A DNA stretch of 42,684 nt, filler included, from Psammoneis japonica (Eukaryota), in assembly GCA_008632985.1 (NCBI GenBank). It is 6 parts of 6 records of this genome, joined end to end, with 100 filler letters (N's around TTAATTAATTAA, not from the genome) between each part and the next. Parts side by side here need not be neighbours in the genome. Positions count along the whole stretch, not along the records: positions 8,094 to 36,991 come from QPGO01000592.1; 5 more parts are not named here. The stretch is one strand, 5' to 3'. This document shows positions 26,540-36,991 of the stretch, piece after piece (the stretch's first letter is position 1; the number at the start of each line of letters is the position of its first letter). The notes under the pieces were generated by a model. That model saw only the letters and a list, made by a program, of their open reading frames with translations, was not told the DNA's origin and made no database searches. Both the position numbers and the translations under genes were made by a program.

Positions 26540-29500
26540 TTGAGTTCACTGTCACTGATGAAAGTGGGACCTGCCGCCGCATCTCCATCTTTGACCATGT
26601 CCACACCAAGAGAATCCCATGGGACAAGGTCGAATCATCTGGAGTCATTGCATCATTTCCATTCTTCTGCTGGTCTTTTGCTCACGTTCAGGTCACTCTT
26701 CTTCCGCTCGCTTTCGTCGCTCATCTTCCAGGTGCCTCCTCTTGCACTCTGCTTCTTCTGCATGGCAGATGGCATGTTTTTGCTCTTTGCATTCCAACTC
26801 TCTCTGAATGCATTCCAACTCTTCTTTGCAGTGCTTTCACGCTTCGGCCTCTTTCGCTGCCTGTTCAACCAAGAGCCGTTGGTGCGCTTCCTCTTGCCGT
26901 TTCAATTCTTTGAGTCATTCTCTCTCCAGCTGCTTGGCTTGTTGAAGCTCCTTGGTGTCACATGCCTCCTTTCCATGAGGGCCAGTTCCCAGGTCATGTG
27001 CTTCATGGATGAAAAGAATGCCACCCTTGGCCTTGCTCTCAGAGCTTGTTCGTTCACCTTTGTCTTGGTCTGGCTCACAAAATCTCCCATCATTTCATGT
27101 CCCAATGACTCGACAATCTTGAGAAGCCCCAATCCAAACAGCACTTGTGCAATGGTTTGTGAGACTGTTGTCTCACCCGCGCCTTGTTGATTCAAACCAA
27201 AGGTGAAAAACACAATGATCGGCTGTGGCCATCAAGAAACCATGTGCATTTTTTGTGTTGACAATTGAACGCAGCACCTGGTGACCCTGCAAACACAAAG
27301 TGCCCCAATGACGGCTGGTTGTTGCCACCACTCTTCAAAACTGCCCAAGTCTTCTTCATGTTGTCCAGCTGTTCCTTCACCTTCTCCATCCAGAAAAGGC
27401 TGTCCAGCTGCTTGAGAGGATCGTCATCCTTCTTGGATCAAGCAACACCATGATCATCAATGTCCATGTCCTCCAGCGTTGGAGTGCCCAATGAAGCACC
27501 AAGGCATTTTGTTGCTTTCAATGTCACTCCCTTTGCAATGAGCTCAGCAGCACCGGCATTTCCAAAATTTGCTTGGCATCTCTGCTGATGAAGAAAGTCT
27601 CCAGGGCCTTTTCATTAAACTCAATGCTGGCCTTGACATTGTTTGTCTTCAAATTCAAGCTGACAATTTGGAGCAGCTCATTGTTGTTGCAGTTGTCAAA
27701 GCAGGGAGCGCGAATTTTCAGAAAATGCTGTGCAAGTCCAGAATTTTGGTTTCAAGTTGATGCCAGCATCTGCTCCTCACAGCCCAAGAGGAGAGCAGCA
27801 GCAATGTCATCTGACGGACCTCCTTGAACTTTCTCAATCAAAGTGTTGAGAACTTGCTTTCCATGCAGACCATCATCAAGGACATGGGCTTTGTCAATGA
27901 CCAACACTTTGCCACCAGCACTTTCAAGGACATTTGTGGTTTTTGTTTGAGACTCTCCGACTGCGCTTCCTGCAAAATCACTCACTGCCTTTGACACAAC
28001 TGCGCCGTTGCTTGTAAATCCAAGCTCCTTTAACAGCCATCAGCACAGCTTGCCGCAGGTGGTTTTGCCGGTGCCTTCATCAAGGAGGGCACTCAGTCAA
28101 TGTGAGTTCACAAAGAGTGCATGTGGGGGCGATGTCAAGATTCACTCACCCAGGTCACCGACAAACACTCGATTGAGAAAAATGTCAAGAGGCAGTTTCC
28201 CTTGCAGCTCTCATTCACAGTTGATGCCGCACAAGTTGACAAGTTCTCCCACAATTTTCTTGACACGGCCCCATCCAATTTTTTTGTCAATCTCGTTGTG
28301 AACTCTCTGGAGTTTCTCATTGGAAAGTCAAGGATCCTGACCAACAATGTGCTGGATCTCAATTTTCATGTTGGCCATGTTGAAATCATTGCCCAGTCAC
28401 GCCATTGCTGACTGCATTGCCTCTTCTAGGCACTTTCTCACATCACGTGCGTTTCCAAAGCCTTTTTGACTGGCTTTCTTGACCAAGCATTTTGCCGCAA
28501 CCGTTGACACCCCTTCAACTTCATCCCATCATTTTTGGACATGGAGATCAGCCCAGATGGTGTGCAACTCATCTTCATCAAAATCTTCAAAGATGCAAAA
28601 ACAGAATCTACTTCTCAAGCCATTGTTGCAGGCGAAGAACTTCTTCTCGAAATCATCTTTGCACCCGGCAAGAATGGATGAGATTTCATCATGTCTGTTT
28701 TTGCACAAGGTGAGGAGCTCGTTTGCAATTGGCCTTCCTTTGAAATCCCCAACTGGATCAAGATCACACACTTCATCAATGAAAACAACACCATCTTGGG
28801 CCTTGGCTGCCAACTTGCAGAATTCATCCATTCCCCCGTCTTTTGTTTCTTGCGCTGTTGGCTTTTCGATTGTGCTCTTCTTGCAAACCCCAGAGTCACA
28901 AAGCATTTTTGCAAAAAGGCATGTGACAGATGTTTTGCCTTCAACGCCAAGTCCAGATGTGGTGTCCAAGCTCACCTGTTCCTGGGTTTCTGGCAAAGAT
29001 GCAGTTTGCTGACTGTCGGTTCTCTTTCCGGGCCTCTGGATCCATTTTCTTAAGTTGCAGTGCTGAACTCCAAAGGCAGAGTGCCTCTTCTTTTATTTTT
29101 CTCAATCCCACATGGGCAAGAAGTTCGTCCATTGCTTCTGATTTGGCTTCTCTGGGATGTTGCTCTTGCAAGTCCCGCCATTGACTCTTCAAGGATTCTT
29201 CCTGCCAGCTTGCAGGCTTTGAAGTGTCCAGTGTGTTGGAGTGTCCTCCGTGCAATCTGTCAAGCTCACTTTCTTGTGAGAGGTGTTTTTGCATGGGAAA
29301 TGCAGATGAAAAGGTCAACAGCAGTTTCTTCTTGTTTGAGGGTTCCAGGCAAGCAGCAACAATCAGGCTCCACAGATGGATTTTGTGGCCTGATCCACAA
29401 GTTTTGGAAGCTTGCACAAAAGCAGCAAGGTGGCTCATTGCCTGGTTGGGATCGTGGCTCAACATCTCCAAAGACATCAGCAGGTGCAACAATGACAAAG

Positions 29501-35500: not shown

Positions 35501-36991
35501 TCCAACAAGCTTTCTTCAATCATTTCATTCACGATTGATGTTTCATTGGCCCCAAACACACAGCGCTTCAGGTGACAAATCATCAATGCATGAGCTTGCA
35601 ACCACGGGGTGTTCTTGGCAAAGGTTCAGGTGCCAACCATTGTTGAAAGGTGAGTGCACTTTGCGCTGAGACTCCAGCACCTTCAACATGGGAATCCACT
35701 CAGGAATGAAAGTCACACAATCAATCTGCAAGAAACAAAATGTGAGACAACTGCAAGCAAAACAACATCTCAAAACATTGACAGGATCTTGTGACTCAAT
35801 GANNNNNNNNNNNNNNNNNNNNNNNNNNNNNNNNNNNNNNNNNNNNNNNNNNNNNNNNNNNNNNNNNNNNNNNNNNNNNNNNNNNNNNNNNNNNNNNNNN
35901 NNNNNNNNNNNNNNNNNNNNNNNNNNNNNNNNNNNNNNNNNNNNNNNNNNNNNNNNNNNNNNNNNNNNNNNNNNNNNNNNNNNNNNNNNNNNNNNNNNNN
36001 NNNNNNNNNNNNNNNNNNNNNNNNNNNNNNNNNNNNNNNNNNNNNNNNNNNNNNNNNNNNNNNNNNNNNNNNNNNNNNNNNNNNNNNNNNNNNNNNNNNN
36101 NNNNNNNNNNNNNNNNNNNNNNNNNNNNNNNNNNNNNNNNNNNNNNNNNNNNNNNNNNNNNNNNNNNNNNNNNNNNNNNNNNNNNNNNNNNNNNNNNNNN
36201 NNNNNNNNNNNNNNNNNNNNNNNNNNNNNNNNNNNNNNNNNNNNNNNNNNNNNNNNNNNNNNNNNNNNNNNNNNNNNNNNNNNNNNNNNNNNNNNNNNNN
36301 NNNNNNNNNNNNNNNNNNNNNNNNNNNNNNNNNNNNNNNNNNNNNNNNNNNNNNNNNNNNNNNNNNNNNNNNNNNNNNNNNNNNNNNNNNNNNNNNNNNN
36401 NNNNNNNNNNNNNNNNNNNNNNNNNCATCTTTGGGACAGCACAATGGAGCAAAGAATGCAGGATTTGACAGCCATTTTATGTCAGCAGACGGCCAATTGT
36501 GGAGTGAGAGTGCCCGGGTGGGCTGTTTCAAGTCAGAGTTTGGAAGCTCCTTGACTTTGACATGCCACGGTTTCTCTAAATCTTCAAGCACTTCCACCAA
36601 TGTGCAAGCCCACATTTCCAATGCTTCTTTGTCTCTTTTTTGCAGCTTTCCTTCTGCTGACTCAATGATTTTTGAGAGGCCTTCAACCACTTGTTTGGCA
36701 ACGCAGTCCCACTTGAACAGCAGAAGGTGAGATGCTGCATTTTTAAGGTTGTCTTTGCAGAGGTCAGGATGGTTGAATTGCCATCTGAATCTCACTCAAG
36801 AATGCCAAAATTGCTGCTTCACATGAATTGATCTGGGGCAGATCAATGGAAGATGACCCTGGTGTCTTGGCCAAGACTTCAATCATCGCACGCCAAGTTT
36901 TTGGCATCCAAAAGCTTTTGTTCCTGCCAGCAGTGGCACCACAGTATTGAAGATGCAATGAGCTCTTGATCAAGCTTGTGGATGGGCACAA
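26540..36991 (-). pseudogene. Giant ZNFX1/NFX1-type SF1 helicase + zinc fingers + three CbbX/SpoVK-like AAA domains, heavily degraded
   Basis: 5' to 3': PGTGKS, LVLSCKNQAID, VEEASEVLEP/MIGDH, LTPHKGQ, VDHFQGDKEDIII, Cys-rich CGH repeats. Then AAA1 (NPGTG/KT, FIDEV, GLRSRF), AAA2 (GTGKT, VLVIDKAH) and AAA3 (HFVFAGSPG), a coiled coil and the terminal CPMGFSW...WRCGGRSHF. Many stops and frameshifts; intron-like interruptions at ~28940-28976 and ~27185-27278. Confidence 0.85.

Follow-up and report, generated by a model that had tools for sequence, protein, structure and literature searches.

In Bigelowiella natans, integrated DNA of viral and other foreign origin was recently found to undergo localized, TpA-directed hypermutation (Mettrop et al., bioRxiv 10.64898/2026.01.13.699255). 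As given in the main text of that preprint, 231 of 302 nuclear mutations in mutation-accumulation lines lay in an integrated giant virus and virophage, 230 of these 231 hypermutations, which arose de novo and in bursts, were A>G or T>C with all of the GC-biased ones at TpA, and the genome contains 324 TpA-poor coding sequences (CDS; mean TpA frequency 0.0018) and 124 TpA-poor, CpA+TpG-rich clusters; its authors propose an ADAT2-like DNA deaminase. Full-text literature searches returned no other report of TpA-directed hypermutation. Two further systems bear on such a process: amphioxus BjADAT2 deaminates DNA (A:T>G:C and C:G>T:A), with contexts 5'-GAA-3' for A and 5'-TCG-3' for C in the excerpted text of its report (PMC10354150), and the excerpt on the TadA-8e A48E editor gives 'YAC' as its preferred context (PMC13109818). 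Here we analyze a window, the whole stretch of 42,684 nucleotides from Psammoneis japonica (GenBank assembly GCA_008632985.1; parts of six records joined end to end, positions 8,094 to 36,991 coming from QPGO01000592.1), and within it a block almost devoid of TpA that holds the remains of a giant helicase-AAA gene. The window is eukaryotic nuclear DNA that carries part of a large-subunit (LSU) rRNA gene and V-SNARE, LRR, Laminin_G_3 and reverse-transcriptase (RT) domains, and the evidence below supports 5'-TAY-3' (Y, pyrimidine; R, purine), rather than a 5' purine, as the context of the mutator that acted on it. The block is:

26456..35802, minus strand: TpA-depleted block, a hypermutated pseudogene of a giant superfamily 1 (SF1) helicase (AAA_11/AAA_12) with a Cys/His-finger and tandem CbbX/SpoVK-like AAA domains (from Pfam and homologs)

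TpA content forms a mosaic along the window, with per-kb observed/expected (O/E) ratios of 0.01–0.2 across large blocks and 0.5–0.77 across others, and the block edges are sharp (<250 bp; TpA per 250 bp falls from 12 to 0 at 26500, and likewise near 21000, 22750 and 9344). Machine counting of 26540-35802 found 28 TpA in 9263 nt (O/E 0.04), namely 17 YTAR, 6 RTAR, 5 YTAY and 0 RTAY, very close to the by-eye tally of the first-pass annotation of this DNA (about 26, of which about 16, 5 and 5, respectively, and no RTAY). The CG, CA and TG O/E values there are 0.31, 1.77 and 1.59, and TA O/E is 0.01–0.09 in eight consecutive full 1-kb windows (27001-35000). Over all depleted blocks O/E is 0.03–0.08 for TA, 0.18–0.48 for CG and 1.6–2.05 for CA and TG; the corresponding normal-block values are 0.46–0.70, 0.81–0.95 and 1.05–1.34. 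Positions 8094-9400, 17051-21050, 22851-26500 and 41101-42684 (10.5 kb, 384 TpA) served as the normal reference; its recognized features, and the linker that had to be kept out of the counts, are as follows:

17051..21050, plus strand: control block of normal composition with a Laminin_G_3 gene (Pfam Laminin_G_3 2.6e-22); TA O/E 0.55; 154 TpA (26 YTAR, 42 YTAY, 40 RTAR, 46 RTAY)
22851..26455, no strand assigned: control block of normal composition that includes the V-SNARE gene; TA O/E 0.51; 131 TpA (33 YTAR, 36 YTAY, 34 RTAR, 28 RTAY)
25162-25713, minus strand: V-SNARE gene (Pfam V-SNARE_C 4.6e-9)
41742..42684, minus strand: 3' part of a eukaryotic LSU rRNA gene (Rfam RF02543, 800 bits), of normal TpA content
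2125..2224, no strand assigned: assembly linker N44-TTAATTAATTAA-N44, not biology

Identical 100-bp linkers, joining separate scaffolds, lie at 4308-4407, 6205-6304, 7994-8093 and 36992-37091. Each contributes three artificial TTAA, which belong to the YTAR class, and linkers were therefore masked in all final TpA counts; none lies inside 26540-35802. No homologs of the Laminin_G open reading frame (ORF) were found at 192-613 aa.

Are the TpA that survive in the depleted DNA a random sample of those once present? The 384 TpA of the normal blocks comprise 83 YTAR, 99 YTAY, 112 RTAR and 90 RTAY, and the class counts of 26540-35802 differ from these (chi2 24.2, p=2.3e-5). Seven other depleted blocks (listed below; 28 YTAR, 4 YTAY, 8 RTAR, 1 RTAY) independently differ from normal (p=1.8e-9), and all eight depleted blocks pooled hold 45 YTAR, 9 YTAY, 14 RTAR and 1 RTAY, or 69 TpA in 22.06 kb (p=9.3e-13 versus normal). 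Relative to the normal blocks the densities are 0.26 for YTAR, 0.060 for RTAR, 0.043 for YTAY and 0.005 for RTAY. The order RTAY < YTAY~RTAR < YTAR that the first-pass annotation expected of a comparison of depleted with normal tetranucleotides is thus borne out, and the same skew is not present in unmutated genes, the normal blocks having no such order. Its count of eight TpA in LRR1 (2224-3444), every one YTAR, is also exact (CTAA 5, TTAA 2, TTAG 1).

These class densities are reproduced by a simple per-strand model in which the two strands are hit independently and exposure is set only by whether R or Y stands 3' of the A. Two exposures (0.67 for R and 2.35 for Y) give expected counts of 45.7, 10.1, 11.5 and 1.7 for YTAR, YTAY, RTAR and RTAY, against 45, 9, 14 and 1 observed. 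The TAY/TAR rate ratio is 3.5, with a profile confidence interval (CI) of 2.65–4.8 and a bootstrap CI, which includes normal-block noise, of 2.5–5.3, and a likelihood-ratio test strongly prefers two rates to a single rate (chi2 70, p=5e-17). RTAY is essentially extinct because both of its strands offer the good context; YTAY and RTAR, with the context on one strand, are depleted about 20-fold, and YTAR, with it on neither, only about 4-fold. The 3' pyrimidine is a preference (a 3.5-fold rate ratio) and not a requirement, in agreement with the earlier remark that YTAR, being depleted too, shows the preference not to be absolute. A four-base 3' model gave exposures of 0.57 for A, 0.81 for G, 2.03 for C and 2.99 for T, a modest gain over the R/Y model (2 x 3.27 log-likelihood units, 2 degrees of freedom, p about 0.04), and 3' T looks to be a somewhat stronger context than 3' C.

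The flank effect belongs to TpA and not to general block composition, since control cores given the identical R/Y flank-class test show none (CG p=0.33, AT p=0.15, GC p=0.45). Among the 16 dinucleotides only TA (depleted/normal density 0.09) and CG (0.42) fall and CA and TG rise (1.37 and 1.45); all dinucleotides other than TA and CG lie within 0.82–1.45, AA and TT being at 1.01 and 1.09. Among the pooled survivors 30 of 69 are NTAG, 13 are TTAA and 9 are CTAA. A at +2, which is the same as T at −3, is found in 51% of survivor strand views and 28% of those in normal blocks, and it is a possible further, protective context element; this signal is indicative only, since the two strand views of one site are not independent. 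Separately, TGCA is 3.6-fold denser in depleted than in normal blocks (310 versus 41 counts, before length scaling), an excess expected if TACA/TGTA was converted through TAC>TGC.

The survivors might alternatively be new TpA, regenerated from CpA/TpG by C>T (for example methylated CWG, where W is A or T, becoming TAG), so that the skew would reflect regeneration instead of removal. The NTAG fraction and the methylation-type CpG decay of the blocks agree with this, and an equilibrium model, which stays conceivable, predicts about 5 RTAY where 1 is seen (arithmetic from the class counts). However, the precursors differ less than 1.5-fold (YCAR 25.7, RCAY 23.2, YCAY 22.6 and RCAR 33.8 per kb), whereas the survivor classes differ 50-fold; the 13 TTAA and 9 CTAA are not CWG products; even the equilibrium skew needs context-dependent removal; and the Tyr outcomes described next are independent of survivors altogether. 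We think it very improbable that regeneration accounts for the skew.

The products of the process can be read in the helicase-AAA gene. Pfam AAA_11 and AAA were found in a six-frame read-through of the block, whose right edge is obscured by a 623-N gap, and a HMMER search of 1.84 billion representatives returned 10920 relatives at E≤0.001, which make this a very widespread cellular-type family; the four long relatives scanned all have AAA_11, AAA_12, at least three AAA stretches and AAA_lid_6. The best 150 of the 10920 relatives were aligned to the DNA by tblastn, which gave 3470 homolog-aligned codons, and a column was called a conserved Tyr column when it held no fewer than 8 homologs and Tyr in at least 60% of them (23 columns). 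Tyr is kept in none of the 23; 12 are now Cys (TGT/TGC), 8 His (CAT/CAC) and 3 Phe (TTT), and the 20 Cys and His outcomes are A>G (equivalently T>C) at TpA. Over all aligned codons Tyr makes up 3 of 3470 (0.1%, versus 2.3% in the homologs), in line with the near-total loss of Tyr codons (TAY) noted in the first-pass annotation. Other conserved residues are retained at 59–100%, except Arg (15 of 42; His 7, Gln 7, stop 4), whose loss to His, Gln and stop is the mark of CpG decay. Forty in-frame stops interrupt the aligned codons, with TGA at four strongly conserved Arg columns (32991, 28399, 28213 and 27754). Two transition processes, TA>TG/CA and CG>TG/CA, have turned the gene into a pseudogene, and the gene is dead because CpG>TpG/CpA decay strips Arg and makes TGA stops.

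Two other accounts of the depletion meet these data directly. Mild TpA avoidance is widespread, and the normal blocks themselves have TA O/E of only 0.46–0.70, so foreign DNA that always avoided TpA, or selection against TpA, might be proposed. But 20 of 23 conserved Tyr turning into Cys or His in a gene with 40 in-frame stops is decay, a non-coding spacer is equally depleted, and O/E of 0.03–0.08 is far past any known avoidance; we give native composition or selection almost no credence. Error-prone repair is the second: in somatic hypermutation the classical hotspot of polymerase eta (Pol-eta) is A>G at WA, TA above all, and a Pol-eta-like polymerase that was repeatedly recruited and misinserted G opposite T at TA would, as is seen here, affect both strands. 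WA includes AA, however, and AA and TT are undiminished (1.01 and 1.09); Pol-eta spectra include the transversions A>T and A>C, whereas Cys and His make up 20 of the 23 Tyr outcomes; and the loss of 97% of one dinucleotide without collateral damage fits a polymerase poorly. We therefore regard error-prone repair as a very unlikely source of the pattern.

Which flank does the mutator read? The class ranking is symmetric: whether the rule is 3'-Y (TAY) or 5'-R (RTA), the survivors should be the same, and so products are needed to decide. Mass balance was calculated from strand-symmetrized tetranucleotide densities (depleted minus normal, per kb): YTAY and YCGY change by −9.5 and −9.4, and YTGY (=RCAR) gains 12.9 and RTGR (=YCAY) only 4.2. 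If the two strands share CpG decay equally, YTGY/RTGR gains of about +12.0/+6.9 are expected under the TAY rule and +6.9/+12.0 under the RTA rule; overall, TG/CA gains make up for the TA and CG losses. The Tyr codons offer a second test, as a Tyr codon is always TAY on the coding strand and the A of the other strand sees the complement of the preceding base. Conserved Tyr after a pyrimidine (ancestral YTAY) became Cys (TGY) eight times and His (CAY) four times, where the expected Cys share is about 22% under the 5'-R rule (p=0.001) and about 78% under the 3'-Y rule (p=0.26), and conserved Tyr after a purine, which has TAY on both strands, gave four Cys and four His; looser column thresholds gave a similar picture. 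The mirror reading, a 5'-R preference, is rejected by mass balance together with the Tyr outcomes, and both favor the interpretation that the first-pass annotation had placed on the ranking, A>G at TAY on either strand.

A TAY rule on one strand is T>C at 5'-RTA-3' on the other, so that the chemistry may be deamination of A or a thymine-directed route. A thymine lesion at 5'-R-T-A-3' (for example oxidation to 5-hydroxymethyluracil, 5hmU, or a T modification that mispairs with G) would meet every test above equally well, as sequence cannot separate A>G from T>C on the two strands, and in dinoflagellate DNA T before A is preferentially replaced by 5hmU. We nonetheless consider such a lesion unlikely: nothing in the present data points to a thymine-modifying system in the organism, and excision repair of the lesions should give some transversions, whereas 20 of the 23 Tyr columns are clean transitions and 230 of 231 hypermutations in the main text of the preprint are transitions as well.

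The two strands of the block are used alike. The plus strand has 941 TG and 990 CA, and a runs test (z=0.60) found no strand-coherent (kataegis-like) patches; equal strands without patches indicate many independent events on duplex DNA, not one single-strand or RNA pass. Alignment of paralogues within the window (LRR repeats and spacer repeats; 1634 nt) gave 12 CA/TG double mismatches, 24 CA/CG and 9 CG/TG, which fits independent hits after duplication, the sample being too small to test context. ADARs have a loose 5' preference (U>A>C>G) and favor 3' G, and ADAR-type hyperediting of RNA, fixed by reverse transcription and reintegration, has in its favor a retroelement among the depleted blocks and the 5' U preference of ADARs (also given in the Discussion of bioRxiv 10.64898/2026.01.13.699255). 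But 5' T is near-absolute here, with no AA, CA or GA loss, a 3' pyrimidine is favored in place of G, the strands are equal without coherent patches, the targets include a gene at flank depth (below), an rDNA spacer and sharp in-place blocks, and the mutations described in the main text of the preprint arose in place in DNA. We hold an RNA route to be extremely improbable.

Is the block a genuine part of the genome? Contigs were derived from one public run, probably of the same sample as the assembly. One of these spans the normal/depleted edge at 25829-28426 with 1 difference and thereby rules out an assembly chimera, and a second spans 28504-35802 with 2 differences. Read depth is about 88–94 over the block and about 90–127 in its flanks (80% likeness); this flank-like depth rules out a present-day repeat, though older duplicates diverged below 80% may exist. 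The differences between window and run in the block (27320, 28542 and 35350) are all TpG in the window and CpG in the run. Of two further runs of the same sample, X2 leaves 21433-22684 and 26441-35802 uncovered, from which nothing is concluded, and X3 gave no aligned contig. Variants over the Laminin_G block come from paralogous contigs and are not TpA-specific (at TpA in 7 of 36 cases within 17051-24052, from a listing of 40 of the 521 differences), and no mutator spectrum was obtained from them.

CpG is lost in the TpA-depleted blocks too (O/E values above), and without flank-class preference, which suggests that these blocks are or were cytosine-methylated. A single BjADAT2-like deaminase with its TCG preference was considered for both losses and rejected, since no flank effect is seen for CpG (p=0.33), among whose contexts TCGN does not stand out.

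The reading that we consider probable is that a TpA-specific, TAY-preferring, targeted DNA enzyme acts on silenced or methylated blocks, in the same process as in B. natans. To the signature, direction, flank rule and block structure measured above it adds an enzyme and a means of targeting that we infer. A local, TpA-specific transition process has run almost to completion in this nuclear DNA, with one A:T pair per TpA becoming G:C and yielding TpG or CpA in many independent events on about equal strands, at a rate set by the base 3' of the target A (pyrimidine, T ≥ C, about 3.5 times purine). Tyr codons in coding sequence thereby turn into Cys or His without new stops, and the blocks so affected (retroelement, LRR genes, unannotatable DNA and rDNA spacer) are confined by sharp edges, with neighboring housekeeping genes untouched. 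The mutator would be enzymatic, most likely a TadA/ADAT-type adenine deaminase (HxE-PCxxC type; A>I, read as G), and its blocks would be selected through their silencing or methylation state. More tentatively, one may imagine a natural DNA adenine deaminase that reads a 5'-T-A-Y-3' half-site (RTAY being the full palindrome) in 5-methylcytosine (5mC)-silenced chromatin, is TadA-like, possibly horizontally acquired and not ADAT2/3, and together with methylation decay erases foreign or unwanted genes; the closeness of the T-A-Y rule to the U-A-C of bacterial TadA would point to such an enzyme over housekeeping ADAT2/3.

Several points weigh against these proposals. The evidence comes from one window and 69 survivors, and the ancestral tetranucleotide mix is assumed to be that of 10.5 kb of neighboring genes. 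The Tyr test taken by itself is compatible with equal strand use (50% Cys expected, p=0.19), and the three Phe (TTT) columns of 23 reflect either a non-transition or an ancestral Phe. The tRNAs on which eukaryotic ADAT2/3 acts mostly carry a purine at position 35. BjADAT2, the one ADAT2 shown to edit DNA, prefers 5'-GAA-3' for A and not TA. It is by signature that the process would be identified with that of B. natans. Lastly, the following partly depleted region departs from the predicted order:

11651..17050, plus strand: partly depleted retroelement ORFs (reverse transcriptase; RVT_1 9.1e-8), pyrimidine-rich coding strand; TA O/E 0.25; 57 TpA (12 YTAR, 37 YTAY, 5 RTAR, 3 RTAY)

YTAY leads the survivors here with 37 of 57, RTAY alone being clearly low; the sole account that we offer of the YTAY excess is that the retroelement coding strand is 67% pyrimidine. 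There are 24 CTAC among the YTAY survivors in the pooled 'mid' count. The RT catalytic box, for which YxDD is the consensus, reads CIDD at the YxDD position of this ORF, a further sign of the TA>TG direction. Metagenome contigs searched for sequences related to the RT ORF gave 97 pattern matches, 0 of them confirmed. In a broader strand asymmetry across 11000-17500, pyrimidines make up about 67% of the plus strand in the retroelement ORFs, with a GC skew of about −0.4 and an AT skew of about −0.3 to −0.4; the rDNA spacer repeats (40000-41500) are in turn purine-rich on the plus strand (AT skew +0.5). This purine/pyrimidine asymmetry is not accounted for by the TpA process.

The seven other depleted blocks of the pooled counts are:

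301..2124, no strand assigned: TpA-depleted scaffold end; 3 TpA (2 YTAR, 1 YTAY, 0 RTAR, 0 RTAY) in 1824 nt; no domain recognized
2225..4307, plus strand: TpA-depleted scaffold with an intact LRR ORF (2236-3444, LRR1; Pfam LRR_14 5.5e-29); the whole scaffold is depleted and 13 of 13 TpA are YTAR
4408..6204, minus strand: TpA-depleted scaffold with a second LRR ORF (4356-6137; Pfam LRR_14 5.7e-29); 6 TpA (3 YTAR, 1 YTAY, 2 RTAR, 0 RTAY)
6305..7993, no strand assigned: TpA-depleted small scaffold; 2 TpA in 1689 nt; no domain recognized
9401..11650, no strand assigned: TpA- and CpG-depleted block in a 28.9-kb scaffold; TA O/E 0.05, CG 0.23, CA 2.05; 8 TpA (5 YTAR, 1 YTAY, 1 RTAR, 1 RTAY); sharp edge near 9344
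21051..22850, no strand assigned: block depleted of TpA and CpG, with a normal gene on either side; TA O/E 0.03, CG 0.41, CA/TG about 1.87; 7 TpA (3 YTAR, 0 YTAY, 4 RTAR, 0 RTAY); edges within 250 bp
39751..41100, no strand assigned: TpA-depleted purine-rich repeat block, rDNA spacer; 2 TpA in 1350 nt; TA O/E 0.03, CG 0.18

Pfam searches of six frames of five other depleted blocks (including 301..2124, 6305..7993 and 9401..11650) matched 0 of 30 reads. As to the origin of the targets, one depleted block is a retroelement, and none of the helicase-AAA, LRR and rDNA spacer targets is recognizably viral. Tandem spacer repeats of about 354–358 bp, 91–94% alike, lie at 40139-40970 inside a depleted block upstream of the rRNA gene. 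Long intact ORFs also occur in depleted DNA (2236-3444, 402 aa; 4356-6137, 593 aa; 13897-17628, 1243 aa), with overlapping ORFs in several frames; TA>TG/CA deletes TAA and TAG and makes no stops, and an open frame is therefore weak evidence of a living gene.

No genome defense that removes a single dinucleotide through A:T>G:C transitions had been reported before 2026, and the context rule found here (an obligatory 5' T; on the 3' side T ≥ C >> G > A, with a difference of about 3.5-fold; both strands; A at +2 possibly protective) may help to identify the enzyme behind it. Quantitative context rules of this kind were the fingerprints by which the APOBEC and AID signatures were identified; this one can be checked against the published de novo mutations and used to rank candidate deaminases in vitro. 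It explains how genes that have been hit can lack Tyr and still have long open frames, and for annotation it means that the LRR and RT ORFs may be dead though intact. The CpG decay found alongside hints at how the targets are selected. Should the agent prove to deaminate adenine in DNA, the engineered adenine base editors would have a natural counterpart.

How does this locus compare with known systems? Fungal repeat-induced point mutation (RIP) is likewise a regional transition hypermutation with sharp edges and methylation-type decay that kills genes and transposons. However, RIP is C>T at CpA and makes TpA, whereas TpA is destroyed here (TpA O/E 0.04, CpA 1.77), and it needs duplicated sequence, whereas the depth of this block equals that of its flanks. 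ADAR and AID/APOBEC similarly give deaminase-driven, context-biased clusters of transitions directed against selfish nucleic acids. ADARs differ in acting on RNA with a loose 5' preference and 3' G, where we see strict 5' T, a favored 3' Y and no patches (z=0.60), and APOBEC enzymes in making strand-coherent C>U changes on single strands, where we see A:T>G:C at TpA on both.

TadA naturally acts on U-A-C-G within a tRNA loop, and TadA and TadA-8e A48E share with the present process the A>I>G change and a 5' pyrimidine with 3' C, as in T-A-Y; natural TadA enzymes act on RNA, however, and here 3' T at least equals 3' C (2.99 versus 2.03) and 5' T is near-obligatory. BjADAT2, an ADAT-family enzyme, makes both A:T>G:C and C:G>T:A changes in DNA, but its context for A is GAA and not T-A-Y.

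Closest of all is the B. natans process. Both involve transitions at TpA only, to TpG or CpA (here in 20 of 23 Tyr columns, with TA at 0.09 and AA at 1.01), and both leave TpA-poor, CpA+TpG-rich clusters (here O/E 0.01–0.09 per kb, CA 1.77, TG 1.59). RT and zinc-finger domains are, by the main text of the preprint, among the depleted CDS of B. natans, where TpA frequency is 0.0018 versus 0.0030 here (28/9263). The targets there are of foreign (viral or transposon) origin; those here include, besides the retroelement, a helicase-AAA gene, LRR genes and an rDNA spacer. The main text of the preprint has no flanking-base preference, Tyr>Cys/His readout or CpG decay, though its Figure 2B or tables might show the flank. 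Judged by these sequence features, the signature of the window matches that process on every feature tested, and what appears to be new, as a refinement of a very recently described process, is the 3'-pyrimidine rule with its size, the Tyr>Cys/His readout and the CpG decay coupled to it.

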